NCBI GenBank assembly: GCA_035444005.1 | Contig: DAOMNV010000007.1 | Location: 11,604 to 75,603 of the forward strand | DNA length: 64,000 nucleotides | Source of the DNA: Gemmatimonadaceae bacterium | Lineage (GTDB): Bacteria > Gemmatimonadota > Gemmatimonadetes > Gemmatimonadales > Gemmatimonadaceae | Direction of reading: 5' to 3' | Shown here: one piece after another, positions 26,039 through 49,162 of the stretch | How the letters are laid out: each line of letters opens with the position of its first letter | How positions within the stretch are numbered: position 1 is the stretch's first letter | The notes under the pieces: model-generated | The model's database searches: none | The model's input: the letters and a program-made list of their open reading frames with translations, nothing else | What the model was told of the DNA's origin: nothing | Translations under genes and position numbers: made by a program

Positions 26039-26386
26039 CGGACGGAAGTTACTCTGATACCGCGCAAATCGGCCTAGGCTGGGTTGCTTCGGCGGCGCAC
26101 GGGGTGAGTATTCTGGCGCGCACTCGTCGGCAAATGGCAGTGGCGCGGCGTGATACTGCTCTGTTCTCGCAGCACAATCCACGTTGTGCGGACAGCATGC
26201 AGAAGGGTGTGCCGACACGATGTCGGGTCGGAATCATCGCGATGCATATGCCTTTGCTAGCACGATTCCAACGCCTCTGCACTTCGCATGCGTTTCGCAC
26301 CTGTGAGCGTCGTGGATGCGAGCGCGACCTAGATATTCCGCAGCCGGACTGCTTACGGCAGTGATGAACCCTCTTTCCACCCTCGC

Positions 26387-27232
26387 TTGTCCACCGCGCC
26401 ACTAAGCATTGCCACGGTCCCTGTCGACGCGCACTGCACTGGCAGTCGTTGGGTCGTGAGCGACGACAAGAGTCTCGCTCGCATCATCGCATACGTCGCG
26501 ATGGGCCATGCGACTCATGCTGCCAACATCCTCAGTGCCCTCACCGAGACATCGCCGGACATTGCTCATCCCGCATTGGTGCTGGCGGCAATTCGAAAGT
26601 TGACTGTCAATGACGCTCCCGGAGCTCCCTCTGAGGGAGTGCCCACCGTTCACAGGGACGGATTCGTTTTCCAGGTGATTTCGTGGGCAGCCGCGCAGCA
26701 AGAGCATGGCGGTTCAGTGCTAATCAGAGACCCGCATTCTTCCGCAACCGCCCAGGGTATTGATGGACTTATGTTGGAGCTATCTGAAGACCGGTCAACG
26801 ATTCACCTAACGACAATCTTTGAAGACAAGTGTACTGAGCATCAAAGACGGACTTTTATGCGGGAGGTTCTCCCGACATTTTCAGCCTTTCACCAGAACC
26901 TGCGCAGCCCTGACCTTGTCGCAACGGCCTCAGGGCTTCTTCGCTGGGCAGGCATCCCTGCCACAGCTGTGCCTCTCATGGCGGCCACAGTACTGGATCC
27001 GCAGGCACGTCGATATCGGGCCGCATTCGCCATTGAGCCTGACTTTGACAGCCAGCAGCGCCGCGCCACGCTCTTTGCCAACTATGACAATCTACAGGGG
27101 CTGACGGCTATACAGCGCGTTGGAGCGACGCTCGTAGTATCGACGCCACTTCGTGCGTGGTTCGCGACACTGGCCGCAACCGCCTGCGAGTATCTGCGGT
27201 CTCTACCTGAAGGGAGTCCTCGCGGTGTTTGA
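26387..27232 (+). CDS. hypothetical protein, candidate HamA-like (DUF1837-like) nuclease partner of the downstream helicase
   Basis: 281 aa, TTG start. A possible PD-(D/E)xK-like arrangement (IDGLMLELSED ... IFEDKC) is present. The gene overlaps the next gene. Homology was not verified. Confidence 0.4.
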   Translation: MSTAPLSIATVPVDAHCTGSRWVVSDDKSLARIIAYVAMGHATHAANILSALTETSPDIAHPALVLAAIRKLTVNDAPGAPSEGVPTVHRDGFVFQVISWAAAQQEHGGSVLIRDPHSSATAQGIDGLMLELSEDRSTIHLTTIFEDKCTEHQRRTFMREVLPTFSAFHQNLRSPDLVATASGLLRWAGIPATAVPLMAATVLDPQARRYRAAFAIEPDFDSQQRRATLFANYDNLQGLTAIQRVGATLVVSTPLRAWFATLAATACEYLRSLPEGSPRGV

Positions 27233-30200
27233 CCCCATTTCAAGCGCGATGCTTCGCGGGGCTCCCGCTGTACCCGGACTTAGTGCAGCGGACATTCCCG
27301 CCTTACTGACTCGGCACTACGCGCGTCTTGTCTCGGCGCGACTGCGCGGTAGCTCACTAACCACCTTTGCCGCCAATGATCAATGGCCGCCGCAGCGCAT
27401 AGCCGATGTATACGAAATTGTGGCATCCCTCGGTGAGGATAGGCCCGCACGCATCGCTGCCGCATTTGTTGCCGCCACCGCTCATCAGGTTATGGCCTCT
27501 GCAAATGCCACAGGCGCTGTCGGTGAGCTTGGCGGCGCAACTGTTTCCCGCGACTCGGTTGACTCCTCCCTTGCCGCCGCGTTGCTCTTCCTTTTAGCTG
27601 AACAGTACGCGGACGCTTACGAAGCCGCACGCACCATTCCCTCAGCGGGTGCGGCAGATCGCTCCGCTGCAGCTCTACTTGCTGAGAACATCGCGTCACT
27701 TGCACGCGGGCAACTTAGAGCCATTCTCGCGAGAGCTGAGAGCCGGTCGACAACATTTCCTAGCGAACTCGACATCGAGGCTGGGGCGCTTTCGGCGCTG
27801 CTTGGCGCCCTAAACGATGGAGTTGAACTGCTCGCTTCGGAGGTCTTGGACGAATCTGGGATTGTTGGCGCCAGGGCGCGCTTTCAGTCCTCGGCTGAAG
27901 CGTTTAACACGGTCCTCGGACTCTCTCAAGGCGAGGAAGCCCGCATCGGGGAGACCGTCTTCCCTCATAGCTCTTACCCCGGTCCCGCTCACCTTGCAGC
28001 GCTTCTGCTGGCGGCCTCTGACTCAATAAGTGGAGCGGCATTGGTTCGCCTCGCACCACCGGACGGGGCGGAAGGGCGCTACTGGAAGCGATGGATAAGG
28101 TTTCGCGCGGAGCGCGCGCCCTTCTTGTGGCCCAATCATCGCACCGCCGTCGATCGCGGTTTCCTGTCTCTCGGCAGTTCGGCAGTTCTTGTTCTGCCCA
28201 CTGGGGCCGGAAAGACGACAGTGTCGTCCTTGAAGATTGCCGCAACCCTCGCTCGAGGGCAGAAGGTCATATTTCTGGCGCCAACGCACGCTCTCGTCGA
28301 GCAGCTTGTCGACGATTTGCAACAGATGTTCCCGCAGGACCTCACTGGCTCTGCAGTGTCGAGCGACTTTGACAGCCTGTTTCAGACGGGGCGAGAGCTT
28401 CGCGACATAGAGGTCATGACGCCAGAGCGATGCCTGGCAATGCTATCGTTTGCTCCCGAGGCATTTGCGAACCTCGGTCTGCTGGTCTTTGATGAATGCC
28501 ACCTGCTGGCCCCTTACGGAGACAGAGTAAGGCGGTCCATGGACGCCATGCTTTGCCTGCTCGGCCTGGTCCGTGTCGCGCCGTCAGCAGATTTGCTCTT
28601 CCTTTCAGCGATGCTTAAGGAAGCCGAGGCTTTCTCTGACTGGGTAGCCGCCCTCACGGGGCGCACCTGCCTTTGCGTTGATCTTCTCTGGAAGCCGAGT
28701 CGGCAGGCGAGAGGCGTACTGATTTACAGTGACGCTGATGTTGCCTCTGCTGAGAAGAGAGCTCTCAGCATCCAGAGGCAGATTGACAAGCAAACGGGCA
28801 AGCGCGCGAAGGGCCTTCGCTCTAAGGCCGCAGAGCATCTTGCCTTGCCAGCGTATGCCCTTTGGGGACTTCAGCATAACTGGCTTCAGGAAGATTCACT
28901 CCGGTGCAGCATTCGCGCGGTACTCGACACTCCTGTCTTGCTGACTGGCCAGCTCGGCCGGGGCACCATTCGCTTGAAGCCGAACGCCAACCACGTTGCT
29001 TCACGAGTCGCGGTGTCTGCCGTGAAGGTCGGTTTAAAAGCCATTGTGTTTGTCAACACCAAAGACGACGCACTCTCCGTAGCGCGTAGCATTTCTGCAG
29101 AGCTTCCCACGGCGGAGCGATTGACTGCACTTGAGCCAGAGCGTTGGTCCGCATTGGAAACAGAGCTTGGCGGCCTAATGCACTCGGTACTTTCACCCGA
29201 TGCAGCCGCTGTTCCACACAATGCGTCAATGATTCGGCTTGAGCGCGATCTGGCAGAGCGTCTGTATCGTCACCCCCGCGGTGCAGCGGCAATTGTCGCG
29301 ACTCCGACACTTGCACAGGGCCTCAATTTACCAGCGCACATTGCGATTCTTGCAGGAGACAAACGCGCTGACTCTACCGGCACTGGGCGATCGGAACTGG
29401 AAGCGCATGAGCTGCTGAACGCGGCGGCGCGTGCGGGGCGCGCTGGCCATGTCGCAAATGGAGTAGTACTCCTCATTCCTGAGCCTCCAATCACCTTCGA
29501 GGCTAAGGAGAAAGCGCTCGGACCGGTCGCAATGCAGAAGTTGAAGTCGATTCTTCCGGATGACGACCGTTGCGTGGCCATTTCCGACCCTCTTCAGTTG
29601 ATACTTGATAGGCTTTCCGAAGGTACGGAGCTCGACGCGGATAGCCGCTACCTTGTGAGCCGAATGATGGGCTTCCGTGCGACCGGCCAAGATGGATCGC
29701 CAGCGGCGCCCTTCGACATTCGGCGTTCGCTAGGAGCATTTGTCGCTCGCATTGAAGGAAGCGAAGAGCGTTTCGAGCGCGGAGTCCTTGCGCTCAGTGC
29801 GGCCGTAGACAACGCTCTTGCTAGCGTTTCCGATGAGCGAGTCGCTTCCCTGGCATCCCTTACTGGTCTTCCATTGGATGTCCTCGAGCGCCTGTTAGGT
29901 CGCCTCTCTGCCGGCGATGCAGCGCTTCCTGATTCAATAGATGCCTGGATTGACTGGACATTCTCCTGGCTTGACTCCGACGTCGAAGCGCGTTCCAGTC
30001 TTCTGGGCGATCTCAGTGGTTCAGTCCGTGCATCTTGCGGCCTTAGCCGATCAGGCGCAGTCTCCGCTGCCGAGCTAAGGATTGTCGCGGCCGGTCTCCG
30101 TGCCTGGGTTCACGGCGCACCCCTCTCGCAGATCGAAACTGCGCTCGGCGGCAACCCGTTCGCTGGCCCATCCTCCGCAAGCCTATGCCCGAGAGCCAGA

Positions 30201-30446
30201 GAACTCGTCGGCACCGTGATTCCTCGCGGCATTTCGTTCATCGTGAGTATCGTTTCTCATCTTGCACGCACGACAGTTGACGGCGCAGGACAGCAGGACC
30301 TCGTCCGCGACACATTGGACGTCTTGGCGACCTGCGTGCGACGTGGTTTCGACTCTGCCGATATGCTTCGCTTCGCGAACGATAATCCTTCAGTACTCTC
30401 TCGCGTTCAGCTTCATAGGCTCTACCATCAGGCAGGAGCTCAGTAG
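27225..30446 (+). CDS. SF2 DExH-box helicase with about 290-aa N-terminal extension, HamB (Hachiman)-like
   Basis: Helicase motifs are present: Walker A LPTGAGKT, DECH, motif III-like SAM, motif VI ARAGRAGH. Total length is about 1070 aa. The start could be GTG 27225 or ATG 27249 (the six-frame track ORF starts at 27153). Confidence 0.6.
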   Translation: MFDPISSAMLRGAPAVPGLSAADIPALLTRHYARLVSARLRGSSLTTFAANDQWPPQRIADVYEIVASLGEDRPARIAAAFVAATAHQVMASANATGAVGELGGATVSRDSVDSSLAAALLFLLAEQYADAYEAARTIPSAGAADRSAAALLAENIASLARGQLRAILARAESRSTTFPSELDIEAGALSALLGALNDGVELLASEVLDESGIVGARARFQSSAEAFNTVLGLSQGEEARIGETVFPHSSYPGPAHLAALLLAASDSISGAALVRLAPPDGAEGRYWKRWIRFRAERAPFLWPNHRTAVDRGFLSLGSSAVLVLPTGAGKTTVSSLKIAATLARGQKVIFLAPTHALVEQLVDDLQQMFPQDLTGSAVSSDFDSLFQTGRELRDIEVMTPERCLAMLSFAPEAFANLGLLVFDECHLLAPYGDRVRRSMDAMLCLLGLVRVAPSADLLFLSAMLKEAEAFSDWVAALTGRTCLCVDLLWKPSRQARGVLIYSDADVASAEKRALSIQRQIDKQTGKRAKGLRSKAAEHLALPAYALWGLQHNWLQEDSLRCSIRAVLDTPVLLTGQLGRGTIRLKPNANHVASRVAVSAVKVGLKAIVFVNTKDDALSVARSISAELPTAERLTALEPERWSALETELGGLMHSVLSPDAAAVPHNASMIRLERDLAERLYRHPRGAAAIVATPTLAQGLNLPAHIAILAGDKRADSTGTGRSELEAHELLNAAARAGRAGHVANGVVLLIPEPPITFEAKEKALGPVAMQKLKSILPDDDRCVAISDPLQLILDRLSEGTELDADSRYLVSRMMGFRATGQDGSPAAPFDIRRSLGAFVARIEGSEERFERGVLALSAAVDNALASVSDERVASLASLTGLPLDVLERLLGRLSAGDAALPDSIDAWIDWTFSWLDSDVEARSSLLGDLSGSVRASCGLSRSGAVSAAELRIVAAGLRAWVHGAPLSQIETALGGNPFAGPSSASLCPRARELVGTVIPRGISFIVSIVSHLARTTVDGAGQQDLVRDTLDVLATCVRRGFDSADMLRFANDNPSVLSRVQLHRLYHQAGAQ

Positions 30447-30616
30447 CCGAGGTGGTGCGGGTGCCGCACAACGAAGCTTGCTGCTGATGAACGCGGTGTG
30501 GACTGGGCTTGGCGGGGCGTCCGCGATTAGGCAAGCTGGTTGCGAACGCCCCGCCAACCCCTTCTTATTGAGCGTTCACAGCAGAAGCACACGTTATACG
30601 GCCCAGACAGGGCCCG

Positions 30617-30898
30617 TTGAACGCGGGCTCTTCCCACCTCCAAAGCCTAGGATTCTGCCCGGTGACTTCAGACGACGACTTTGCGCTGATTGTGCCTCGC
30701 CACGGCGAACCGGTGATTGTCGAGCCGGGTGATGACCTTTCCGAATACGTGGGCTCGCAGCTCTCCACCCGGCGACGGGCAGTCGCGCTTAAGTCTGGCC
30801 GGAGCGTCACGGGCACCATCTACGCTATCCGTGAACTGAGTGGAGAGGATGAGATCGCGATTGAGGTGCTGGTCAACGAGTTCTTTGCGAAGGCGTAG
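30617..30898 (+). CDS. small acidic hypothetical protein (93 aa or shorter)
   Basis: Balanced, non-Arg-rich composition in a low-GC spacer. The ORF precedes the HTH-DUF433 gene. It could be spurious. Confidence 0.25.
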   Translation: MNAGSSHLQSLGFCPVTSDDDFALIVPRHGEPVIVEPGDDLSEYVGSQLSTRRRAVALKSGRSVTGTIYAIRELSGEDEIAIEVLVNEFFAKA

Positions 30899-31028
30899 CG
30901 AAAGCGTGGGAATGACTGTCCCCTTCCCGCGCTGTCCCGGTCGACGACGCGAGGCGCGAACCTCAGTGCCCGTGACGCCATGCGACACACGTGCGTATTT
31001 TCCATAGGAACGCCACCGCACCCTCCCT

Positions 31029-31730
31029 ATGGTAGCCTCGAGATTCAAGTACATCGGCCGCGGCGTCTACTCGTTGCCTGACGCGGAGCGGCTCACCGGC
31101 GTCCCGCGCCGGAGCATTCGGCGGTGGACGTCGGGCTATAGGTGGGTGTACCGAGGTCGCCCTCGCTACTCCCCTCCGGTCATCGGCGCAGACCTGGCTG
31201 AAATATTTGGTGCCCCGGCTCTCGATTTTGCTGACTTGATCGAGGTTCGCTTCCTTCAGGCGTTCCTTAACAAAGGTGTGAGCTGGAAGACGATCCGGAT
31301 CGCCTCTGAGCGCGCGAAAGAGGTGCTCGGCGCTCGTCATCCATTCTCCCACAGGAAGTTCAGCACAGACGGGCGCAACATCCTGGCAGAACTCGCGCGC
31401 GCTGAGGATGATCCTGTGCTGCTTGACTTGGTCCGAGATCAGTACGAACTCAATCGCCTCGTCTCACAGCACCTTTTCGGCGAGATCGATTTTGGACCTG
31501 ACGACGCCCCATCCGTCTGGTATCCGCTAGGGAAGTCGCAGCGCGTAGTTGTAGATCCCCGCCGTGCTCTGGGTGCGCCGATCATCGCATCGGTTGGCAT
31601 TCCTACTGCTGTCCTTGCGCAGTCCGCAGAGGCTGAGGGCTCGGTCACGGTTGTTGCCGATATGTTCGGCATTGAGGTCGCCGACGTGCTTGATGCTGTC
31701 AACTACGAGACCTCTCGTTCGAGCCGGTGA
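31029..31730 (+). CDS. HTH domain + C-terminal DUF433 protein (putative antitoxin-like component)
   Basis: N-terminal excisionase/MerR-like HTH (YSLPDAERLTGVPRRSIRRW). The C-terminus (RRALGAPIIASVGIPTAVLAQSAEAEGSVTVVADMFGIEVADVLDAVNYE) matches the DUF433 pattern. It overlaps the next gene by 4 nt. Confidence 0.55.
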   Translation: MVASRFKYIGRGVYSLPDAERLTGVPRRSIRRWTSGYRWVYRGRPRYSPPVIGADLAEIFGAPALDFADLIEVRFLQAFLNKGVSWKTIRIASERAKEVLGARHPFSHRKFSTDGRNILAELARAEDDPVLLDLVRDQYELNRLVSQHLFGEIDFGPDDAPSVWYPLGKSQRVVVDPRRALGAPIIASVGIPTAVLAQSAEAEGSVTVVADMFGIEVADVLDAVNYETSRSSR

Positions 31731-32140
31731 GATTCTTCCTTGACGCATGCATTTCGCAGCGCATTGCGCACAGCTTGGCGCTCGCCGCGGAGGGTAACGG
31801 GCAGACAGTCAAGCACCTGACGGACCTCTTTGAGCCCAACACTCCCGACGTCGAGTGGATTCGCGCTTTGAAACAGGAAGGCGATTGGATAATCATCTCT
31901 GCCGACCCCAGAATCACTCGCAACAGAATCGAGCACGCTGCGTGGCAAGAGAGTGGCCTCACGGCCTTCTTTCTAGTTGACTTCTCTCGCCGCAAGTTCT
32001 GGGATCAGCTCCACGAGCTCGTCTCTCGTTGGCCCGATATCGTAATCGCGGCGAGGGAAGGTGCGCCGGGCTCTGGGTATTTGATAAAGCCGAGACAGAA
32101 GAGCTTTCCGACAATTTTTGAACCAGCCACAGATCAGTAG
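31727..32140 (+). CDS. DUF5615 (Mut7-C/PIN-like RNase) protein, putative toxin-like partner of DUF433
   Basis: MRFFLDACIS...GDWIIISADPRITRN... DUF433 and DUF5615 are a widely co-occurring pair. Confidence 0.6.
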   Translation: MRFFLDACISQRIAHSLALAAEGNGQTVKHLTDLFEPNTPDVEWIRALKQEGDWIIISADPRITRNRIEHAAWQESGLTAFFLVDFSRRKFWDQLHELVSRWPDIVIAAREGAPGSGYLIKPRQKSFPTIFEPATDQ

Positions 32141-32267
32141 CGAGAGCGAATTGGGCGCGCCGCCGTATGACGCAGCTTGTTGCCGACGATGGATCTTGCT
32201 CCAGTTCGGTTGACATCTCTACCTAACACGGATCGCGGAGGAATCCATCGTTTGAGGTGGGAGAGTC

Positions 32268-32948
32268 TTGCAGTCTACCCGTCTTGTACGCCTGACCCAC
32301 CAAGTGTCAAATGCTGCTCTCGTCTCGACATTGGCATTCGCAAGCAACGACAACATCTCGCTTATGGATTCCCCCGAACGCCAATCCGTCCGCAGAGCGC
32401 TCGACGCACTCAAGCCATTTCTCGAGGCCTTCCTGCACAAGCAGGGCGTCAGGCCAGCGCCCGCGATCGGCGGCCACGCAGGTTCCACGCCAGACATTCA
32501 GGCCCTACTCAGAGCTTGCCTCCACGCTTGGGACGCGGTCCTCCAGCACCAGCTCCCCCGCGTCGCCCGCACATACATCCACGAGATCCTCGACGTCCGC
32601 AACCGCTGGGCCCACGAGGCACCCTTCACCGCTGCCGAGGCGGCTCGCGCCGCAGACACGGCCAGAGTCTTCGCCGTGCTCATCGGCGCCCCCGAGCAGC
32701 CGGCCACCATCCCTGCTACCGCCCCTGCCCCGCGGCCAGCACCCGGCAAACGCCGCGAATCCCAGCGCGAGATCATGGCCCGCATCTTCGTCGCTGCCGG
32801 CCGCGACGAAGAGCGAGCTATCCGCGAGTACGCGGCTGCCGAGCTCCGGGGTGAAGTGGTACGCAAGAGCAACAAGCACGGCCTGGATGCAGAGTCCTAC
32901 GCGCGAGCACTGCTCAATGACGGCCTGAAGAAGGGCTGGCTGCCATAG
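32268..32948 (+). CDS. HEPN-domain (Rx4H) protein, Swt1-like (start uncertain; ATG at 32364 also possible)
   Basis: The motif ILDVRNRWAHEAPF contains R-x4-H, the HEPN catalytic signature. No adjacent minimal nucleotidyltransferase partner is present. Confidence 0.45.
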   Translation: MQSTRLVRLTHQVSNAALVSTLAFASNDNISLMDSPERQSVRRALDALKPFLEAFLHKQGVRPAPAIGGHAGSTPDIQALLRACLHAWDAVLQHQLPRVARTYIHEILDVRNRWAHEAPFTAAEAARAADTARVFAVLIGAPEQPATIPATAPAPRPAPGKRRESQREIMARIFVAAGRDEERAIREYAAAELRGEVVRKSNKHGLDAESYARALLNDGLKKGWLP

Positions 32949-33021
32949 GCCTAGGACACATCGCGCTTGTCAGACCCCGGGGGTAAGTTCCGCGAGACTT
33001 CAACCGACCGACTCGCCCTCT

Positions 33022-35739: not shown

Positions 35740-35743
35740 CCGG

Positions 35744-36796
35744 ATGGCCCAGGCCATTCCTGTCGATAACATCTACTACCTGCTTGCCTACGCGTGGGAC
35801 CGGCTCGACGAGGCCGACCTCGCTGAGGTGAGCGCGCTGTCGGCACATAGTCTGGTGGAGCTGTTCGCGAGGGTGCTGCGGACCGGCGTTTCCCACCTCC
35901 TGCTCCGCGGACTCGACAGGTCGTACGTCGTGGAGACCGAGGAGCTCGCCGGAGTACGCGGCCGCATCGAGCTTGCCGCCTCCCTCCAGCACCTCTCGTT
36001 CCCGCAGGGCCGCGCCGTCTGCTCGTACGACGAGCTTTCCATAGATACGCCCGCCAACCGCGTTATCAAGACGACGCTGCGGCGGCTTGCCGCCGAGCCG
36101 AGTCTCAGCGCCAGCGATGCGGAGTCACTGCGGGAGCTCTACCGGCGCCTTCCTGGCGTCGCGACTGTGGCGTTGAGCGACAGCTCGTTCCGCCGTGTGA
36201 ACGTCACGGTCAACCGCAGCCAGTACGGGTTCCTGCTCGATGTCTGCACACTCATCCATCGCAACCTGTTGATGGACGAAGCTGCCGGTGAGTTCGTGTT
36301 TCGCGATTTCACGCGAGACAATCAGCAAATGGCACGGCTATTCGAGAGCTTCCTGCGTCGGTTTTACGAGCGGGAACAGGATGCGTTCAAGGTCGCGGCA
36401 CCGAAGTTGTACTGGGACGCCGAAGGCCCCGCCGCCAGCCTGTCCTTTCTGCCGGAGATGCGCACGGACCTTGTGCTCCGGGCACCTGGGCGAACGCTCG
36501 TGATTGACGCGAAGTACTACTCCGAGGCATTGAGCCGCTACTACGACAAAGACACGATCCGGCCGGACCACTTGTACCAGATGTCTGCCTACCTGAGGCA
36601 CATCACACCGGACCTTCCGGCGGCTGCGGTCGGAGGGATGCTGCTGTACCCGAGGACGACGGAGTCGCGGTGTCTCGACTTCTCGGTCCACGGCCACCCG
36701 TTCAGAGTCGCGACGGTAAACCTTGCGCAGCATTGGAAGGCGCTGCACGAGGAGTTGCTGGGCCTCGTCCGAGGCCTCTCCCCCGTGGCTGCCTAA
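35744..36796 (+). CDS. mcrC: McrC restriction endonuclease subunit
   Basis: 350 aa immediately downstream of mcr[22 protein letters not shown]... is an McrC-like N-terminus, and a PD-(D/E)xK region is present (LVIDAKYY). Confidence 0.75.
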
Positions 36797-36873
36797 GGGC
36801 TATCTTCGAGAATCTCCCCATAGGCTTGCTGGCCGAGCCTCAGGACACACGAGCCCCCCGACCTCGCGCGATT

Positions 36874-38616
36874 TTGGCAGACACCAACCTCTCCGCCCTC
36901 CTCTGGTCCGTCGCCGATCTTCTCCGCGGCGACTACAAGCAGTCCGAATACGGCAAGGTCATCCTCCCCTTCACCGTCCTCCGCCGCCTCGACTGCGTGC
37001 TGGAGCCCACCAAGCCGGCGGTCCTAAAGGAGTACGTGAGGCGACAGAAGTCCGGCCTCGACCCCGACGCCTTCTGCAAGAAGGTCGCGGGCCTCGACTT
37101 CTACAACACCTCTCCACTCGACCTCAACAGGCTCATCGGCGACCAAGACAACATCGGTCCGAACCTCGTCGCGTACACTCAAGGCTTCTCCCCCGCCGTG
37201 CGCGACATCTTCGATCAGTTCGACTTCCACACGCAGATCGACCGGCTGACCAAGGCCAGACTGCTTTATCTGGTGACGGAGAAGTTCGCCGGCGTTGACC
37301 TGCACCCTGAGACGGTGAGCAACGCCGATATGGGCCTCGTCTTCGAGGAACTCATCCGGCGCTTCGCCGAACTCTCCAACGAGACGGCCGGTGAGCACTT
37401 CACGCCGCGCGAGGTCATCCGGCTGATGGTGAACCTCATCTTTACCGAGGACGGCGATGTCCTCGCGAAGCCAGGCGTAGTACGCCAGCTGTATGACCCG
37501 ACAGCGGGCACGGGCGGGATGCTGAGCGTAGCCGAGGAGCACCTGAAGGTGATGAACCCGAAGGCTCGGCTCGTGATGCACGGGCAGGAGCTCAACCCCG
37601 AGTCCTACGCCATCTGTAAGGCGGATATGCTCATCAAGGGGCAGGACATCGGGAACATCATCCTCGGCAACACGCTCTCCGAGGACGGGCACCGCGGCCA
37701 GCGCTTCGACTATATGCTCTCCAACCCGCCCTTCGGCGTGGAGTGGAAGAAGGTCGAGAAGGAGGTGCGCCGCGAGCACGAACAGCAGGGCTTCGACGGG
37801 CGCTTCGGGCCGGGACTCCCGCGCGTGAGCGACGGCTCAATGCTCTTTCTGCTGCACCTGCTCTCGAAGATGCGCCCCGCGAAGGACGGCGGCAGCCGCT
37901 TTGCAATCGTGCTCAACGGCTCCCCACTCTTCACGGGCGGCGCGGGCTCAGGCGAGAGCGAGATCCGGCGCTACGTCCTCGAGAACGACCTCCTCGAGGC
38001 GATCGTGGGGCTCCCGACCGACATGTTCTACAACACGGGGATCGCGACCTACATCTGGGTGGTGAGCAACCGGAAGCCGGCGGACCGGAAGGGGAAGGTC
38101 CAGCTCATCGACGCCAGCGCGATGTGGCAGAAGATACGGAAGTCGCTGGGCTCCAAGCGGCGCGAGATGGCCGAGTCGCACATCGAGGATGTCACGAAGC
38201 TCTTCGGGGACGCCGAGGAGGTGACGCGCGATGGCGTGCCCATCAGCCGCATCTTCCGGAACGAGGAGTTCGGCTACCGGACCATCACGGTCGAGCGACC
38301 GCAGCGGGACGAGGCCGGCAACGTCGTGCTCGGCACCAAGGGCAAGCTCAAGGGGAAGCCGGTCGCCGACCCAGCCTTGCGCGACACGGAGAATGTGCCG
38401 CTCACCGAGGCGGTGGAGGCGTACTTCGAGCGCGAGGTGAAGCCGCACGCGCCGGATGCTTGGATCGACGAAGAGAAGACCAAGGTCGGGTATGAGATCC
38501 CGTTCAACCGGCACTTCTATGTCTTCAAGCCGCCGCGCTCGTTGGAGGAGATTGACGCGGAGCTGAAGGAGGTGTCAGGGCGGATTGTGGCGATGCTAGG
38601 AGATCTTCACACGTGA
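36874..38616 (+). CDS. hsdM: type I restriction-modification system methyltransferase subunit HsdM
   Basis: HsdM N-domain ([41 protein letters not shown]). N6-adenine methyltransferase motif NPPF ([10 protein letters not shown]). The start is set at TTG 36874; the six-frame track ORF extends into mcrC. Confidence 0.85.
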
Positions 38617-39926
38617 GTCTTCGAAAATACCCAGGTCTGAAGCAGACCGGCATTCCTTGGTTCCCAGCTGCACCTGATTCGTGGCGTGTTCTGCCGCTAT
38701 TCGCGTGTGCAGCCGAGAAATATCAGAGCAACCTGGGCTCGGTCAATGCTAATCTGCTTTCCCTGAGTTACGGCAACATTGTTCGAAAAGACATAAACTC
38801 AAATGACGGGCTTCTTCCCGAATCATTCGAGACATATCAGGTCGTTGATCCAGGTGACATCATTCTGCGTCTTACCGATATGCAGAATGACCAACGCAGC
38901 CTTCGTTCTGGAATTGTGCGTGAGCGGGGGATCATTACTTCAGCCTACCTAAACCTTCAGCCCACGGCCCTCGAATCGGAGTACCTTGCCTACCAGATTC
39001 GTGCGATCGATACATGCAAGGTCATGTATTCAATGGGAGGAGGATTACGCCAGTCCATCAAGTATTCAGACCTGAAGCAACTCCCGCTGATAGCTCCTCC
39101 CTTGCAGGAGCAGAAGTTGATTGCCCGGTTTCTCGACCGCGAGACTGCCAAGATCGACGCCCTCATCACCGAGCAGGAGCGGCTGATTGCGCTGCTGCAG
39201 GAGAAGCGGCAGGCCGTCATCTCGCACGCGGTGACCAAGGGACTGGACCCGAACGTGCCGATGAAGGACTCGGGGGTTCAGTGGATGGGCAGGATCCCGG
39301 CGCACTGGAGCGTTACATCGACTCGTCGCTTGGCGAGTGCAATCCTTACTGGGCGCACTCCTAGCACCGGAGCTCCCGCTGAGTGCGACGCAGGGAGCAC
39401 CATCCCGTGGTATACCCCTGGTGACTTTACCGGCTCACTAATGCTAGACCAGTCAGTACGGTGTATATCGGAAGCAACCCTTGAGGCCAACGAGGTTCCG
39501 AGCTTTCCCGCCGGCTCCGTGCTGCTCGTGGCAATCGGTGCAACGCTTGGTAAGCTCGCTGTAGCCAGGCGGACTTGCTCCGCAAACCAACAAGTCAACG
39601 CCATCGTGCCCGCGTCCGGCACCAACGGGCGGTATGTCGCTTTCGCTCTAGATGCTCAGAAAGAGCAGATCGTCGCGCAAGCCGCGGCCTCGACACTGCC
39701 GATTCTAAACCAAGAGAAGACAGCTTCACTGCTTGTGGCGCTCCCGCCTGCTCTGGAGCAGGACGCAATCGTGGCCTTACTTGATGAGCAACTGACCGCC
39801 CACGAGGCAGTCCTGCAGGGCTGCGAACGCTCAATCAACTTACTCTTCGAACGCCGCACCGCCCTCATCACCGCCGCCGTGACCGGCCAGATCGACGTCC
39901 GCGGCCTTGTCGAGACCGCCGCCTGA
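38613..39926 (+). CDS. hsdS: type I restriction-modification specificity subunit HsdS (two target-recognition domains)
   Basis: 437 aa with GTG start overlapping the hsdM stop. Two TRD halves are separated by conserved central and C-terminal helices ([40 protein letters not shown]). Confidence 0.8.
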
Positions 39927-42900
39927 TGGCTCTGCACAACGAAATCCGCTTCGAAGACGACATCTGCGAGGCCCTGGCCACCGCCGGCTGGCTCTACCAG
40001 AAGGCCGACGCCGCGCTCTACGACCGCGCCCGCGCCCTCTTCACCCCGGACCTCGTCGCCTGGGTGCGCGAGACGCAGCCGACCGTCTGGGAATCCCTCG
40101 AGAAGAACCACGGCCCCAAGGCCAGCGACACCCTGCTCGACCGCGCCCGCGCCCAACTCGACCAGCGCGGCACGCTCGATGTCCTCCGCCACGGCATCGA
40201 CCTGCTCGGCGCCAAGGGCACCGTCACGCTAGCGCAGTTCAAGCCCGCCATCGGCCTCAACCCCAGCATCCTCGGCCGCTACGCCGCCAACCGCCTCCGC
40301 GTCGTCCGCCAGCTCAAGTACTCGCTCCACAACGAGAACTGCATCGACCTGGTGCTTTTCCTGAACGGCATCCCCGTCGCCACGGTCGAGCTCAAGACGG
40401 ACTTCACGCAGAACATCGACGACGCGGTGGACCAGTACCGCTTCGATCGCGACCCGCGCCCCAAGGGCCAGGCCCCGGAGCCGCTGCTCAGCTTCCCCTC
40501 CGGCGCCCTCGTGCACTTCGCGGTGAGCACACGCGAAGTGCGGATGACAACCAAGCTCGAAGGCGCCACGACGCGCTTCCTGCCCTTCAACCAGGGCGAC
40601 CACGGCGGCAAGGGGAATCCCGTCGCCGCCGACGGCGGCTACCGCACGGGCTATCTCTGGAATGAAGTCTGGGCCCGCGACAGCTGGCTCGAGATCCTCG
40701 GCCGCTACTGCATCGCCCAGCGCGATGAGAAGAAGCAGATCAAGAACGTCATCTTCCCGCGCTATCACCAGCTCGACGTCACCCGCAAGTTGCAGGCGGC
40801 CGTCCGTACCGACGGCCCAGGGGCCAAATACCTCGTCCAGCACTCGGCGGGCTCCGGCAAGACCAACTCGATCGCCTGGACCGCGCACTTCTTCAGCGAG
40901 CTGCACGACGCCGAGGACCACAAGCTGTTCGACACCGTCCTCGTGGTGTCGGACCGCAACGTCATCGACAAGCAGCTGCAGGAAGCCATATTCGACGCCC
41001 AACGCACCAAGGGCGTGGTCGAGACGATCACGGATTCCGACGGCAGCAAGAGCGGCCAGCTCGCGACCGCGCTCAAGGCGGGCAAGAAGATCATTGTCTG
41101 CACCATCCAGACCTTCCCCTTCGCGCTGAAGGCGGTCCGCGAGCTGGCCGCGACGGAGAAGAAGCGCTTTGCGGTGCTCGCCGACGAGGCGCATAGCTCT
41201 CAGACTGGCGAGGCCGCGGCCAAGCTCAAGGCCGTCCTAAGCTCGGAGGAGATTGCGGCCCTTCAGGCCATCGCGCCAGCCGAGGACGGCGGCGAGGTCA
41301 GCACAGAAGACATCCTCGCCGCGCAGATGGCCACCCGCGCGGCTGACACCGGCATCACGTTCGTCGCCTTCACCGCAACGCCCAAGAACAAGACGCTCGA
41401 GCTCTTCGGCACCAAGGCGCCCGGTGACACGGTCCCGCGGCCCTTCCACGTGTATTCGATGCGCCAGGCCATCGAGGAAGGTTTCATTCTCGACGTCCTG
41501 CGCAACTACACGACCTTCGACCTCGCCTTCAAGCTCTCGCAGGCCGGCGAGGAGTTCGACGACCGCGAGGTCGAGCGCTCCAAGGCGATGCGCGGGATTA
41601 TGGGCTGGGTGAAGCTCCACCCGCACAACATCGCGCAGAAGGTGCGGGTGGTCGTCGAGCACTACCGCCAGCACGTCGCCCCCCTGCTCGACGGCCGCGC
41701 CAAGGCGATGGTCGTCGTCGGCAGCCGCAAGGAGGCCGTGCGCTGGAAGCTGGCCATCGACGCCTACATCAAGGAAAAGGGCTACCCGCTCGGCACACTT
41801 GTCGCCTTCTCCGGTGAGGTCGTGGACGAGGAATCAGGCCCCGAGCCCTTCACCGAGACCTCCAAGGATCTCAATCCACACCTCAAGGGCCGCGACATCC
41901 GCGAGGCCTTCAACACGCCGGCGTACCAGATCCTGCTCGTCGCCAACAAGTTCCAGACCGGCTTCGACCAGCCCCTGCTCTGCGGGATGTACGTGGACAA
42001 GCGCCTCGCCGGCATCCAGGCCGTGCAGACGCTCTCGCGCCTCAACCGCGCGTACCCCGGCAAGGACACCACCTATGTGGTGGACTTCGCCAACAACGCA
42101 GAGGATGTGCTCACGGCGTTCAAGACGTACTACGAGACCGCCGAGCTCGCCGCGACGACGGATCCCAACCTCGTGTACGACCTGCGGGCCAAGCTCGACG
42201 CCGCGGGGCACTACGACGACCACGAGATCGAGCGCGTCGTCGAGGTGCTGCTGAACCCCAGGGCCAAGCAGGAGCAGCTCGCGAAGGCGCTGGAGCCCGT
42301 CGCCGACCGCATCCTCAAGCGCTACGCCGCCGCCCGCGCCGACTTCGAGGATGCCACCGTCAGGAAGGACGGCGAGGCAGCCGAGCGGGCCAAGCAGACG
42401 ATGGACGCGCTGGTGCTGTTCAAGGGCGATATGGAAGCGTTCAACCGCCTCTACACCTTCCTCTCGCAGATCTTCGACTACGGCAACACCGCCATCGAGA
42501 AGCGCGGGATGTTTTACAAGCACCTCGTGCGGCTACTGGAGTTCGGCCGCGAGCGCTCCGGCGTGGACCTCTCGAAGGTGGTGCTCACGCACTACAACCT
42601 GAAGGGCGGCAAGAATGCCCCGCTTTCAGTGCGCGAAGGCGATCCGCTGCAGATCGATCCGCTCAGCGAGGCCGGACGCGGCCAGGTGCAGGACAAAGAG
42701 AAGGCGCGGCTGTCCGAGATTATCGAGCGTGTCAATGACCTCTTCGCCGGGGATCTCACCGACGAGGACCGCATTGCATTCGTGGAGCACGTGCGGAGCA
42801 AGCTTCTCGAGTCCGAGAAGCTTCAGGCGCAGGCCGCGAACAACAGCAAAGCACAGTTCAGCGCGTCTCCGGACCTGACCGAGGCTATCACGCACGCGGT

Positions 42901-43039
42901 CATTGGGGCGCTGGATTCGTACTCGACGATGAGTACCCAGGCGCTGAACAACGAGGGGACCAAGCAGGGACTGAAGAAGGTGCTGCTGGACCTGGCGGGG
43001 CTCTACGAGGCGCTGCGGGAGAAGGGGACGGCAGCGTAG
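39926..43039 (+). CDS. hsdR: type I restriction enzyme endonuclease/helicase subunit HsdR
   Basis: 1037 aa. N-terminal PD-(D/E)xK region (IDLVLFLNGIPVATVELK), SF2 motifs (HSAGSGKT; LADEAHSSQ), and the HsdR C-terminal region. Confidence 0.9.
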   Translation: MALHNEIRFEDDICEALATAGWLYQKADAALYDRARALFTPDLVAWVRETQPTVWESLEKNHGPKASDTLLDRARAQLDQRGTLDVLRHGIDLLGAKGTVTLAQFKPAIGLNPSILGRYAANRLRVVRQLKYSLHNENCIDLVLFLNGIPVATVELKTDFTQNIDDAVDQYRFDRDPRPKGQAPEPLLSFPSGALVHFAVSTREVRMTTKLEGATTRFLPFNQGDHGGKGNPVAADGGYRTGYLWNEVWARDSWLEILGRYCIAQRDEKKQIKNVIFPRYHQLDVTRKLQAAVRTDGPGAKYLVQHSAGSGKTNSIAWTAHFFSELHDAEDHKLFDTVLVVSDRNVIDKQLQEAIFDAQRTKGVVETITDSDGSKSGQLATALKAGKKIIVCTIQTFPFALKAVRELAATEKKRFAVLADEAHSSQTGEAAAKLKAVLSSEEIAALQAIAPAEDGGEVSTEDILAAQMATRAADTGITFVAFTATPKNKTLELFGTKAPGDTVPRPFHVYSMRQAIEEGFILDVLRNYTTFDLAFKLSQAGEEFDDREVERSKAMRGIMGWVKLHPHNIAQKVRVVVEHYRQHVAPLLDGRAKAMVVVGSRKEAVRWKLAIDAYIKEKGYPLGTLVAFSGEVVDEESGPEPFTETSKDLNPHLKGRDIREAFNTPAYQILLVANKFQTGFDQPLLCGMYVDKRLAGIQAVQTLSRLNRAYPGKDTTYVVDFANNAEDVLTAFKTYYETAELAATTDPNLVYDLRAKLDAAGHYDDHEIERVVEVLLNPRAKQEQLAKALEPVADRILKRYAAARADFEDATVRKDGEAAERAKQTMDALVLFKGDMEAFNRLYTFLSQIFDYGNTAIEKRGMFYKHLVRLLEFGRERSGVDLSKVVLTHYNLKGGKNAPLSVREGDPLQIDPLSEAGRGQVQDKEKARLSEIIERVNDLFAGDLTDEDRIAFVEHVRSKLLESEKLQAQAANNSKAQFSASPDLTEAITHAVIGALDSYSTMSTQALNNEGTKQGLKKVLLDLAGLYEALREKGTAA

Positions 43040-43050
43040 GCCCCGCGACG

Positions 43051-43818
43051 TTAGGCGCGGACACGTCCCCACTCCGACCTCGATTCCGTCCACGTGTCGG
43101 CATCGAAGCTCGCGAACACCGCCGCGTCAAACAGACAGGGGGCGACATTCGCCGCGCGACAGAGCGCCTGCACTCCGTCTGAGACGAACTGATAGTAGTG
43201 CCGATCCGCGAGCGCGGTGGCATTCAGCTTCACCGGAAAACCGAACTCGTTCAGCCACTTCGCGAGGCGGCTGTCGAGCGGAATCTCATAGCGGGTGAGC
43301 CCCAGCCCCTGAAGGAGATTCCTGCTCTGCTTGGGGCCGATGCCGAGCAGGTTGTCAGCGAGAAGGTTCGCGACTTCTTGCTCTAGCTCTGCGCTGACCT
43401 CTGTCGACAGTCGCGTGAGCATCGGGTTGATGTCGCCCCAAAGACCCGAGCAAAGCCTTCGATAGTTCGTGGCGAGTTCACGCCCGATCACGGTCGACCG
43501 GCGAATGCCGCCGAAGCGCGTCAGCGTTCTAGTGACGAAGGTCGCGACATCTCGTTGTTCCGAGACTTCACTGAACGACAGCGGAAACGGTCGAGTCGCT
43601 AGGAATCGCGTCACCGGACTGTTCGGCCCTGCCTTCTGCTGCGTGGTGAGCAGCGCGCCGCACAGTCCGTGCCAGAAGCCGGCCAAGCTGACTCGCGGGC
43701 GCCGCGCCGCGAGATTCCGGCGTTTGCGCACCTCGATAATCTTCAACCCCTTGAAATCGGCCATCAGCTGCTTGACGGCCTGAATGTCTTTCGCGGTCAC
43801 TTGCCAGCTGAAGCGCAT
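43051..43818 (-). CDS. HhH-GPD-like DNA glycosylase candidate (Ogg2/AGOG-like pattern)
   Basis: LLGIGPKQSRNLLQGLGLTRYEIPLDSRLAKWL resembles the helix-hairpin-helix GIGPK..ASHFLRN.G...DRHI motif of archaeal-type 8-oxoG glycosylases. Assigned by recall only. Confidence 0.35.
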   Translation of the reverse strand: MRFSWQVTAKDIQAVKQLMADFKGLKIIEVRKRRNLAARRPRVSLAGFWHGLCGALLTTQQKAGPNSPVTRFLATRPFPLSFSEVSEQRDVATFVTRTLTRFGGIRRSTVIGRELATNYRRLCSGLWGDINPMLTRLSTEVSAELEQEVANLLADNLLGIGPKQSRNLLQGLGLTRYEIPLDSRLAKWLNEFGFPVKLNATALADRHYYQFVSDGVQALCRAANVAPCLFDAAVFASFDADTWTESRSEWGRVRA

Positions 43819-43954
43819 TGTCTACCTGCTCGGGAGAGAGGGAAGCCACCGCGAGAGACCGCGCTATCGTGTGCAACATGGCGATGCCAGAACTGAAGCC
43901 TGACTGCCATAGAACTTCAGTATGGAGAGAAGAGCGAATCTTGCAAGACGACCG

Positions 43955-44290
43955 ATGTTCCGTACCTTCTACGGTACACTTTTCCGCACTCCAGAGCGTA
44001 CCGTGCGCAAGCTCAAGCCTTCTCGCGACATCCGCCCTGTCACCGAGTTCCGCGCCAACGCCGCGCAGTTCATTGAGCAGGTGCAGCAGACGGGCGAGCC
44101 CATCATCCTCACGCAGCACGGAAAGGGCGCGGCGGTCCTGCTGGATCTCGAGGTCTTCGAATCGCTTGTCGAAGAGATCGAGGTCCTCCGCGACATCCGA
44201 ATCTCCGAAGCGCAGGTCGCCGCCGGAGAAGGCATTCCTCACGAGGAAGCGATGAACCGTGTGCGCCGGCGGCCTCGAAAGTTTCGGTGA
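43955..44290 (+). CDS. Phd/YefM-family antitoxin-like protein
   Basis: PVTEFRANAAQFIEQVQQTGEPIILTQHGKGAAVLLDLEVFESLVEEIEVLRD matches the Phd/YefM pattern. The start ATG may be 43955 or 43922. No Doc/YoeB-type toxin is adjacent. Confidence 0.55.
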   Translation: MFRTFYGTLFRTPERTVRKLKPSRDIRPVTEFRANAAQFIEQVQQTGEPIILTQHGKGAAVLLDLEVFESLVEEIEVLRDIRISEAQVAAGEGIPHEEAMNRVRRRPRKFR

Positions 44291-44403
44291 TCTTGTCTCC
44301 GCGACACCGCGACACAGATGGCAATTTTCGGTGCTTGACGGATTCGGCCGATTTCTTCACATTGAAGGTGTTACACCCCCCCTGCGTTTCGGCGCAGGGC
44401 GCG

Positions 44404-44437
44404 AGGCCGCCCCTAAAAAGGCGGCCTCTGCTTTTTC
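44404..44437 (+). terminator. rho-independent terminator
   Basis: GAGGCCGCC-cctaaaaa-GGCGGCCTC is a perfect 9-bp stem, followed by TGCTTTTTCC. Confidence 0.6.
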
Positions 44438-44452
44438 CACCCAATTCCTTCG

Positions 44453-45079
44453 ATGATTCGGACTTTCGTCTACGTCGACGGCTTCAACCTCTACTACGGA
44501 TCCTTGCGGAAGACACCGCACCGCTGGCTCAATCTCGAGCAGCTGTGCCGGTTGCTCCTTCCCCCGAACGACGTACGGCGAATCAACTACTACACTGCCC
44601 GAGTCGGCCCTCGGCCCGACGATCCCGATCAACCCCTGCGGCAGCAGACGTATCTGCGCGCGCTTGGCACGCTACCGACCGTGCGCCTGCATTTCGGGCA
44701 CTACCTGAGCCACGCCGTGAGTATGCCCCTCGCATCCCCTGCCCCCGCTGGGCCGAAGTTTGCGAGGGTCATCAAGACAGAAGAGAAGGGGTCAGACGTG
44801 AATCTCGCAACCCATCTGGTGAGCGACGCGTACGAGGACTCGTTCGATTGCGCCGTCCTCATTACGAACGACTCGGACCTCCGCGCCCCCGTCGAGCTCG
44901 TGCGCAACCGACTCGGCAAACAGGTCGGTATCCTGAATCCGCATCAGCATCCAGCCGCAGTGCTGACAAAGGCGGCACACTTCGTGAAGACCATTCGATC
45001 AGGCGCGCTTCGCGCAAGCCAGTTCCCTGCGGTCCTGAGCGATGCACGAGGAACGTTCTCGAAACCAGCGAACTGGTAG
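44453..45079 (+). CDS. NYN-domain (LabA-like PIN-fold) ribonuclease
   Basis: MIRTFVYVDGFNLYYG...KGSDVNLATHLVSDAYEDSFDCAVLITNDSDL carries the NYN acidic-residue signature. Confidence 0.7.
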   Translation: MIRTFVYVDGFNLYYGSLRKTPHRWLNLEQLCRLLLPPNDVRRINYYTARVGPRPDDPDQPLRQQTYLRALGTLPTVRLHFGHYLSHAVSMPLASPAPAGPKFARVIKTEEKGSDVNLATHLVSDAYEDSFDCAVLITNDSDLRAPVELVRNRLGKQVGILNPHQHPAAVLTKAAHFVKTIRSGALRASQFPAVLSDARGTFSKPANW

Positions 45080-45090
45080 CCTGCCGCCCC

Positions 45091-47289: not shown

Positions 47290-47392
47290 AGCTTGGAGAT
47301 ACCGCCGATTCGCGTGTCGCGCGAGGGACGCGCAGATCACGTCGCTGCGCTCGATGTTTGACCCGACTTGTCAAACTTCGCATCTTGGGCGT

Positions 47393-47590
47393 ATGCCCAA
47401 GTCCTACTCCCTCCACGCGGCCAAGACGTTGCGAGCGGCGCCGGAGCCGAAGACGGCGGAGGAGCGGCTCGACGAACTCGAGCGCGCCGGGTTGCTCCAC
47501 ACCGTTCCTGTGAAGCCTGGGCGGGCGAAGTTCCCCCTCGGCGTCGCACGGCCGGGCGGGCTCAAGCGGTTCCTCGAGGATCGCGAGTGA
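47393..47590 (+). CDS. small hypothetical protein (65 aa)
   Basis: MPKSYSLHAAKTLRAAPEPKTAEERLDELERAGLLHTVPVKPG... This is a weak call that rests on composition only. Confidence 0.2.
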   Translation: MPKSYSLHAAKTLRAAPEPKTAEERLDELERAGLLHTVPVKPGRAKFPLGVARPGGLKRFLEDRE

Positions 47591-47644
47591 GCATCACCTA
47601 CGTCGACGGTTCGGTGTTCGTCGCGTACGCCGTGGAACGCCGAA

Positions 47645-49078: not shown

Positions 49079-49162
49079 TTGGGGCTCCGTGGACGGGCGG
49101 GCTGCATCAATATGACTATGGAGACAGAGGAATCTCTTGACGCGCCGGGCAGCTCTTGTAGA

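Follow-up and report, generated by a model that had tools for sequence, protein, structure and literature searches.

How can a dense group of putative defence genes settle beside a core gene of a bacterial chromosome without an integrase, a transfer RNA (tRNA) gene or flanking direct repeats? The question is raised by a stretch of 64,000 nt from a Gemmatimonadaceae bacterium (assembly GCA_035444005.1, contig DAOMNV010000007.1, positions 11,604-75,603), called the window throughout, in which genes for Hachiman-like, McrBC, type I restriction-modification (R-M) and putative RNase modules lie next to prmC, encoding the release-factor glutamine methyltransferase. The original prediction, made from the sequence alone, treated positions 26,040-45,090 as one island of about 19 kb, lower in GC content than its flanks and inserted between two core genes, prmC and an S9 peptidase gene. 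The analysis reported here favours a different answer, to which we give a probability of roughly 0.78: the region is the prmC-proximal part of a long-lived, layered and core-anchored defence hotspot, in which 31 kb of accessory DNA parts prfA and prmC. The defence genes listed originally (a Hachiman-like pair, DUF433/PIN, HEPN, McrBC, type I R-M, a glycosylase-like gene, Phd and NYN) agree with Pfam, PADLOC and Foldseek results and are retained.

The prmC-Proximal Exchange Slot

Relatives were found via an identical YlbF-like protein encoded beside prmC and then via prmC homologues, giving about a dozen metagenomic or genomic comparators, designated here by L numbers. Among them, Pseudogemmatithrix spongiicola, to which the source of the window is close (prmC 84% identical by BLASTP, and 86-87.5% by tblastn and codon alignments), is represented by a complete genome (loci L112 and L113, CP130612.1). 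The flanking core genes of these relatives are ~82-94% identical at the nucleotide level, and their prmC proteins 79-93%. A metagenome scan with prmC provided three useful loci. Among exact-protein searches, that with RF-1 gave no record and that with the L31 protein only the same strain or short contigs.

The left anchor, prmC (25142-26038, minus strand; TIGR03534, 3.4e-68, above the cut-off; called at 298 amino acids [aa] in L081/L082), is kept in every relative, where it is followed by ylbF, tmk and ctpB, and by further genes where the contigs reach. Upstream of it lies a conserved block of about 147 bp (26039-26185, minus strand), delimited by blastn end points and alignment. In six contigs (L084, L085, L087, L088, L119 and L120; blastn) the alignment to the window extends no further than 26179-26185, and in the other relatives homology ends within ~20-60 bp of the prmC start codon (ATG). 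The sole upstream sequence that is invariant in nine aligned relatives, whatever their cargo, is a TA(G/A)ATT box located 7-9 nt before this ATG (26039-26060, minus strand). This suggests that prmC is transcribed from a promoter of its own into an mRNA with a very short leader or none at all, which may explain why insertions are tolerated right up to the gene. It should also be mentioned that the 147-bp block, kept in five relatives, contains a short hairpin, T(G/A)CTGC...GCAGTA (26100-26185, minus strand), and may serve in regulation or as an anchor for recombination. Promoter and terminator scans of the spacers remained at chance level.

Beyond this block, the content of the 10.7 kb that separate prmC from hsdM (26186-36873, plus strand; GC 0.613) is replaced in every relative examined. 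As homology to hsdM begins exactly at 36874 in L113, L119 and L120, this position is a common break point, and we regard 26186-36873 as an exchange slot. At least ten distinct states are found upstream of prmC among the relatives: a PIN toxin-antitoxin (TA) pair in L083; a PIN-TA pair and Mrr in P. spongiicola; GmrSD_N in L085; a KAP NTPase in L088; SIR2-nSTAND, Mrr and HsdM (95%) in L119/L120; a Ser/Thr kinase-SWIB gene in L098; pyruvate:ferredoxin oxidoreductase (PFOR), a dihydroorotate dehydrogenase (DHODH)-like gene and M48 in L096; an insertion sequence (IS), unknown genes (180, 117 and 376 aa), a glycosylase-like gene, Phd-ParE and M48 in L114; ThiF, JAB, metallo-beta-lactamase (MBL), IS110, IS3 and unknown genes of 332 and 156 aa in L116/L117; and five unknown genes (90, 112, 383, 250 and 233 aa) in L118. 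This cargo is enriched in defence genes (PIN-TA, GmrSD_N, KAP NTPase, Mrr, SIR2-nSTAND, RhuM, ParE/Phd and ThiF with JAB and MBL), and it also includes the non-defence PFOR and kinase-SWIB genes. Outside the window, its HamAB, DUF433/PIN, HEPN and McrBC genes are confined to assemblies of the same strain that are nearly identical to it. The comparison of relatives that the original prediction had proposed consequently reveals a variable hotspot, with different cargo directly upstream of prmC in each; rather than one gene set of uniform composition in all relatives, we find differing cargo and, in the window, uneven GC content at third codon positions (GC3).

The L116/L117 cluster (positions 1-9800) comprises DUF2188, LRAT, MBL, ThiF (E1-like) and Prok-JAB genes together with IS110 and IS3, and in gene content resembles ubiquitin-like (Bil/CBASS-accessory type) defence modules.

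Layers of Unequal Age

The lower GC content is genuine, with 0.621 at 26039-45090 vs 0.694 (1-26038), 0.678 (45091-57094) and 0.691 (57095-64000), yet the drop is uneven, and at least five compositional layers can be distinguished by GC3. When compared with 13 flanking core genes (mean GC3 0.896, standard deviation [sd] 0.054), most genes of the interval fall 2-6 sd below the core mean and McrC 1.5 sd below it, whereas hsdM and hsdR are host-like. The values form a ladder from 0.58-0.59 (HamA-like 0.575, HamB-like 0.590) through 0.67-0.71 (78-aa open reading frame [ORF], DUF433 and PIN_10) and 0.78-0.82 (HEPN 0.78, McrB 0.785, McrC 0.815) to 0.90-0.91 (HsdM 0.895, HsdR 0.914); in addition, HsdS stands at 0.648 and the glycosylase-like, Phd and NYN genes at 0.75-0.77. 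HamAB, DUF433/PIN, HEPN/McrBC, hsdS and Phd/NYN each have a separate composition; HamAB is the most foreign layer by GC3, and HEPN is in the same compositional layer as McrBC. Read together, composition and synteny indicate that the interval is a mosaic of unequal ages.

The type I R-M genes carry much of this argument. HsdM (36874-38616; PADLOC MTase_I 6.8e-272; N6_Mtase, HsdM_N), HsdS (38613-39926; PADLOC Specificity_I 1.4e-104; Methylase_S), the specificity subunit with diverged target-recognition domains, and HsdR (39926-43039; HSDR_N, SWI2_SNF2, T1R_D3; PADLOC REase_I 5.9e-33) are intact and encoded in one plus-strand operon with overlapping frames (38613/38616, 39926). At the same locus, HsdM is 92.7% identical in amino acid sequence to that of P. 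spongiicola and 95% to that of L120, and the N-terminal 625 codons of HsdR are 97% identical to P. spongiicola (96.7% by tblastn). HsdS is only 44% identical, except for a 183-nt central block at 90%. The hsdM, hsdR and glycosylase-like genes are positional orthologues of P. spongiicola genes. A recent transfer of hsdR and hsdM between genera, considered on account of the high protein identities, was rejected, as identity at 4-fold-degenerate sites (hsdM 70.6%, C-terminal part of HsdR 66%) matches that of core genes (60-74%), the N-terminal part of HsdR (83%) being a possible exception. Their core-like 4-fold-site identity therefore marks hsdM and hsdR as old residents.

In P. spongiicola the gene order is DUF2200, OmdA, M48, two-component genes, LGT, PDC-S01, a 256-aa gene, HsdR (interrupted), HsdS, RhuM::IS481, HsdM, Mrr, the PIN-TA pair and prmC. 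Its hsdR is split by ~1 kb of high-GC DNA, and RhuM, between hsdS and hsdM, is broken by an IS481-family transposase (L112 10783-14937 and L113 4307-6412); this R-M copy may be inactive.

The history that we propose would begin with an old layer made of hsdM, hsdR, the Ogg2-like glycosylase gene, PDC-S01, M48, OmdA and DUF2200, which is common to another genus and would have been ameliorated; within it, specificity change would be confined to hsdS. The slot cassettes would have followed and, from the oldest- to the newest-looking by GC3, they would be HEPN with McrBC, the DUF433-PIN_10 pair with the 78-aa gene, and the Hachiman-like pair. A third edit would have placed NYN and the S9 peptidase where a relative carries ParE, the toxin partner of Phd.

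The prfA-prmC Frame

On the far side, prfA (release factor RF-1; 57095-58162, minus strand; PCRF and RF-1 domains), preceded by rpmE, lies 31 kb from prmC (26038 to 57095). Adjacency of prfA and prmC is a common bacterial arrangement. It is found in L101 and in L097 (prmC 64% identical), where prfA (8868-9857) and prmC (from 10001) are ~140 bp apart and form an empty site: L097 is syntenic with the window at 57.1-63.9 kb on one side and at 22.6-25.8 kb on the other, and 26.04-57.09 kb is missing. The anchors thus differ in depth, with prmC present in every relative and the far side formed by prfA (L097, L101) or by M48/OmdA/DUF2200 (P. spongiicola, L096, L114).

Both genes flanking the originally proposed island had been taken as core. 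This stands for prmC; the gene for the S9 prolyl-oligopeptidase-family peptidase (45091-47289, minus strand; PF00326 1.3e-34; GC3 0.89) has no counterpart at this position in L096, L114 and P. spongiicola. It was also rejected as a synteny anchor, since its homologues in 80 GTDB loci (55-79% identity, one 92%) have no neighbour in common with the window except in L060. Judged by this synteny, S9 is lineage-specific at this position and is no core boundary. In L060 (1-2538 vs window 46022-50387), S9 (92% aa identity) abuts a PDC-S01 homologue without M48 or the 65-aa ORF; therefore the 45-50 kb part of the window has also been rearranged between species. The M48 peptidase gene (47645-49078, minus strand; PF01435, precomputed), absent in L060, has counterparts with 82-86% aa identity near prmC in P. 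spongiicola, L096 and L114, which places it in an older layer conserved across the clade. Nor does defence-related content end at 45,090, as had been proposed: an AAA_14/DUF4143 ATPase gene (49211-50401, plus strand) with a full-length match to PDC-S01, a PADLOC defence candidate (1.3e-178), lies beyond S9, outside 26040-45090. In P. spongiicola, PDC-S01 is split into two ORFs and adjoins the glycosylase-like gene.

The rest of the prfA-prmC interval (50402-57094), mostly host-like in GC, encodes VTT, GT2, HTH_17, OmdA, DUF2200, a 198-aa ORF, Band_7 with a 184-aa partner and DUF2442 (Pfam). The HTH_17 gene (excisionase/MerR-like; 51969-52415, minus strand) has a low GC3 of 0.77. In L114, an 88-90% identical homologue is followed by a PIN_3/VapC50 toxin gene, which is missing in the window, so that the HTH_17 protein of the window may be an orphan antitoxin.

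Probable Route of Exchange and Alternative Explanations

The original prediction had reported no integrase, tRNA or flanking direct repeats, from the sequence alone, and our searches agree. ARAGORN detected no tRNA or transfer-messenger RNA (tmRNA) gene in the 64-kb window, no Rfam family was found in the whole window, and Pfam scans and gene calls gave no integrase or transposase domain across 26-57 kb. Direct repeats between 26.0-26.4 kb and either 45.0-45.1 kb or 57 kb did not rise above chance-like imperfect matches of 20-40 nt, so that the search for attL/attR sites at the former two positions gave no repeat pair. Slot DNA (26186-36873) had no megablast match among plasmids.

As mobility genes are absent, homologous recombination through the flanks is the most likely route of exchange. 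Once DNA had entered by uptake or transduction, cassettes would be swapped repeatedly in the slot between hsdM and the prmC promoter, by homologous recombination in three conserved anchors: hsdM, M48 and prmC, the last together with its 147-bp leader. A secondary contribution would come from IS elements, of which IS481, IS110 and IS3 are carried by relatives at the locus.

The alternative that survives best, and that we nevertheless consider improbable, is accretion driven mainly by transposition, in which the cassettes arrived with IS elements or composite transposons and this strain subsequently lost its IS copies. Relatives with IS481 inside RhuM, with an rve-type transposase beside prmC or with IS110 and IS3 copies in the slot are in its favour, as is a Rhizobium plasmid that carries recombinase, integrase, TniB and transposase genes around its copy of the HamA-like/helicase pair. 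However, the 31-kb interval of the window contains no transposase, IS remnant or inverted terminal repeats, and in several independent relatives homology breaks off at the beginning of hsdM and at the prmC leader. Because these break points coincide with conserved gene ends, recombination at shared anchors fits better than random IS insertion.

A single integrative element of ~19 kb (a genomic island, an integrative and conjugative element or a prophage remnant) that entered by one site-specific insertion between prmC and S9, the arrangement closest to what had originally been proposed, appears very unlikely. It would account for the low-GC DNA being contiguous, with composition changing sharply near 26.0 and 45.1 kb, and for the fact that all genes of the block but one are on one strand. 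It is contradicted by the absence of an integrase, tRNA and direct repeats in the window, by the five or more compositional layers, and by the presence of hsdM, hsdR and the glycosylase-like gene, as old residents with core-like synonymous divergence, at the same locus of another genus, P. spongiicola. Furthermore, relatives vary by sub-block and not as a whole block, S9 is itself variable, and the plasmid megablast with 26186-36873 was empty.

The assembly of the region is independently supported. The window is 99.96% identical to the ENA metagenome contig ERZ773355 NODE_407, which runs from prmC to PDC-S01, and contigs of the NCBI assembly GCA_035446105.1 match it at 99.8-99.96%; the M48-S9-NYN stretch is covered by one Logan contig at 100% identity. 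Both junctions of 26.04-45.09 kb are thus independently assembled, as NODE_407 and the Logan contig reproduce them. It is hardly credible that the low GC stems from functional constraint on native genes, or from chimeric assembly or binning, and not from horizontal acquisition: the host-like GC3 of hsdM, hsdR, S9 and M48 and a glycosylase-like gene that tracks phylogeny (91, 90, 82 and 79% in Gemmatimonadaceae) would suit native genes, but presence/absence polymorphism excludes this for HamAB, DUF433/PIN, HEPN and McrBC, HamAB homologues are otherwise proteobacterial (38-52% identity), and the reproduced junctions (99.96-100%) speak against a chimera.

The Hachiman-Like Pair and a Small Conserved Gene

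The first slot gene (26456-27232, plus strand; 258 aa, alternative start at 26501) encodes a HamA-like, predicted PD-(D/E)xK nuclease. The protein has no Pfam or PADLOC match, including none to any PADLOC HamA model; Pfam detects DUF1837 at E<=1 in none of 33 sampled members of its family, and the family profile has no match among PDB sequences. D103, E123, D124 and K125 are invariant across 33 homologues. The AlphaFold2 (AF2) model (predicted local distance difference test [pLDDT] 91.5) has as its top PDB fold match, a weak one, the Hachiman structure 8zue_A (E 2.4e-3, prob 0.98, TMq 0.40), followed by restriction and Mus81-type nucleases, and some relatives are named 'HamA C-terminal' in UniRef. 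The downstream gene (27249-30446, plus strand; 1065 aa; Pfam DEAD 3.6e-19, ResIII) encodes a HamB-like Ski2/Hel308-type superfamily 2 helicase, which matches ~17 PADLOC HamB models (best HamB1, 6.1e-27) and the solved HamB 8vx9_B (4.9e-18), with its core beginning at about residue 290 (HamB ~302). The two genes are also adjacent on Rhizobium leguminosarum pRLTp73_3 and on Shewanella pSA70-3, where the helicase looks fragmented; homologues elsewhere are from Proteobacteria, with 38-52% identity.

The pair therefore resembles Hachiman in its two-gene operon with the small gene first, in the fit of its helicase to HamB profiles and to the solved HamB, in the invariant D...ExK motif and best structural match of the partner, and in its conservation across phyla. 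It differs in that none of the 33 partners fits DUF1837 or any PADLOC HamA model, and in a moderate TM value of 0.40. The original designation stands for the helicase and is less secure for its partner: because DUF1837, one defining feature, is missing, we call the pair Hachiman-like and not a plain member of Hachiman.

The spacer at 30450-31030, previously thought to lack convincing genes, contains a genuine small gene, a conserved ORF (30662-30898, plus strand; 78 aa) that is called in both ENA and NCBI assemblies. Ten cluster representatives are homologous to it (identity 35-56%, length mostly 76-90 aa, E down to 5e-13), and PADLOC gives no match.

DUF433/PIN, HEPN and McrBC

The remaining slot genes are all on the plus strand. 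A putative antitoxin with HTH_66 and DUF433 (31029-31730; PF21321 1.9e-5, PF04255 3.1e-5) is followed by a putative toxin RNase of the PIN_10 family (Mut7-C-like PIN; 31727-32140; PF18478 8.5e-25). The two genes share 4 bp, and this arrangement of a small DNA-binding antitoxin gene overlapping a downstream PIN gene is type II TA-like. A stand-alone HEPN (Swt1-like) gene (32364-32948; PF18731 1.8e-15) comes next; the protein had no match among plasmids. The McrB-like AAA+ GTPase (33022-35739; 905 aa; AAA_5 1.9e-24; precomputed domains DUF8426 and McrB_lid) has a long N-terminal extension. Its match to McrB NF008457 (1e-94) covers residues 617-893 only, i.e. the motor, and is under the equivalog cut-off, and its N-terminal DNA-reader domain is unlike that of EcoKMcrB. 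The gene for the McrC nuclease subunit (35744-36796; PF10117 8.1e-30) follows that of the McrB AAA+ subunit in the type IV McrBC arrangement.

The Glycosylase-Like Gene, Phd and NYN

Between hsdR and Phd, a gene on the minus strand (43051-43818) encodes a 255-aa Ogg2-like HhH-GPD DNA glycosylase/lyase-like protein. In Foldseek, its AF2 model (pLDDT 90.9) matches MjOgg 3knt (E 6e-5, TMt 0.82) and, with 3knt, also 3fhf and 3n0u at prob 1.00 and TMt 0.78-0.82, and the HMMER profile match to 3fhf has an E of 0.06. In the HMMER alignment, the invariant K163 and D182 fall on the Lys of the 'GIGYKEAS' HhH and the Asp of 'IIDRH' in MjOgg, which we take to be the catalytic residues of Ogg2 enzymes. The protein thus shares with Ogg2 (MjOgg, Tm1821) the HhH-GPD fold and the aligned Lys and Asp; it differs in being 12-15% identical and ~45 residues longer, and in having no match to the Pfam HhH-GPD model. 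More than 1700 homologues exist, and identities within Gemmatimonadaceae follow phylogeny. The gene keeps its position beside hsdR; it is found at the same locus in P. spongiicola (256 aa) and in L114, where it stays without R-M.

The Phd/YefM-type antitoxin (43955-44290, plus strand; PF02604 7.6e-19) shares 93% identity with its L114 counterpart, a Phd that is paired with ParE and directly followed by M48. No ParE remnant was found after the window Phd, as homology to L114 stops at ~44302, and the gene is apparently orphaned. Two GC-rich hairpins, the second followed by TGCTTTTT, lie between Phd and NYN (44380-44436, plus strand) and are terminator-like as read from the sequence. The NYN-domain protein (44453-45079, plus strand; PF01936, precomputed) matches the PADLOC candidate HEC-09 over its full length (3.4e-43). 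A Phd-NYN toxin-antitoxin pair was considered and rejected, given the 162-bp gap with terminator-like hairpins and the pairing of the orthologous Phd with ParE in L114. The ORF at 44287-45306 was likewise rejected as the NYN gene, being in the wrong frame, and its Pfam scan is therefore empty.

From what is known of these families, type I R-M would cut unmodified and McrBC modified DNA. HamAB would respond to DNA damage by releasing a nuclease, and toxin or abortive-infection functions would fall to the RNases of the PIN, HEPN and NYN types. Taken together, the island is predicted to give layered immunity.

A Palindromic Intergenic Element

A near-perfect palindromic intergenic element of ~150 nt, built of CACGGAGA heptads and CTGCAACTGCAG arms, occurs at 62965-63110, 21749-21883 and 10564-10739. 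At least three copies are present in the window, none of them at the island borders, and the minimum free energy with RNA parameters is -120 kcal/mol over 170 nt. Copies are also found at the DAHP-synthase intergenic site in L084, L086, L087, L089, L114 and L118, and the element looks like a repetitive extragenic palindrome (REP) or a miniature inverted-repeat transposable element (MITE).

Discussion

Several points weigh against reading the region as a layered, core-anchored defence hotspot. Most relatives are represented by short metagenomic contigs that end within the variable region, and the position of prfA is known in this strain, L097 and L101 only, so that the 31-kb frame may not be clade-wide. 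Recombination via the flanks is deduced from missing mobility genes, and the defence function is predicted. In detail, the N-terminal part of hsdR, at 83% identity in 4-fold sites, is above any core gene, which may reflect exchange inside the 'old' layer; by its profile matches and structural model, the HamA-like protein is outside the defining Pfam family, with a moderate fold match (TM 0.40); and the HEC-09 family gave no protection in a published screen (bioRxiv 10.1101/2024.01.29.577857).

The hotspot reading has precedents. The enterobacterial immigration control region (ICR) has, next to hsdRMS, a position at which McrBC, Mrr and GmrSD take each other's place, and its empty form is found in E. 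coli C (PMC12707154). Like the ICR (yjiA...yjiN: mcrBC-hsdSMR-mrr), the window locus is chromosomal, appears to lie between conserved genes, has no dedicated integrase and combines type I hsdRMS with an exchanged type IV system (McrBC in the window, Mrr in P. spongiicola and L119/L120, GmrSD in L085). An empty site in a relative is common to both, here from a more distant relative only (L097). In contrast to the ICR, it belongs to another phylum, is anchored by prmC/prfA and not by yjiA/yjiN, and adds the Hachiman-like pair, TA/RNase modules and non-defence genes (S9, M48; PFOR in L096). For the core defence hotspots of Pseudomonas aeruginosa (cDHS1/2), transfer by transduction and homologous recombination via the flanks has been proposed (PMC10250203), and integrase-free hotspots of E. 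coli contain variable defence-rich content between core flanks (PMC10121019). The window locus has in common with both the apparent core flanks, the highly variable, low-GC, defence-rich content and the lack of a single class of mobile genetic element. It differs from cDHS1/2 in that about a dozen relatives stand behind it, as opposed to hundreds of genomes, and in being explicitly nested, with an old, vertically inherited R-M anchor. A broader proposal, which we put forward tentatively and with more doubt than confidence, is that, throughout Gemmatimonadaceae, the DNA preceding prmC (in ancestral genomes the junction of prfA and prmC) forms an integrase-free defence hotspot, with a vertically inherited type I R-M system as internal recombination anchor.

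The locus reveals no new principle of defence-island function and is a fresh example of a well-known locus type in a phylum that has received little study. Very few Gemmatimonadota have been cultured, and we know of no systematic description of their defence repertoire. The divergent Hachiman-like family is missed by current Pfam and PADLOC HamA models. If the broader proposal is true, new defence systems or subtypes would be represented by the HamA family lacking DUF1837 together with its helicase, by the 78-aa gene and by the unknown gene sets of L114, L116/L117 and L118. The prmC-ylbF-tmk anchor beside a slot of fast turnover would be a simple handle for mining metagenomes for new defence cassettes, a use to which the ICR and cDHS loci have already been put in Proteobacteria. 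In the locus itself, an R-M anchor of vertical descent lies next to a slot whose content changes quickly.

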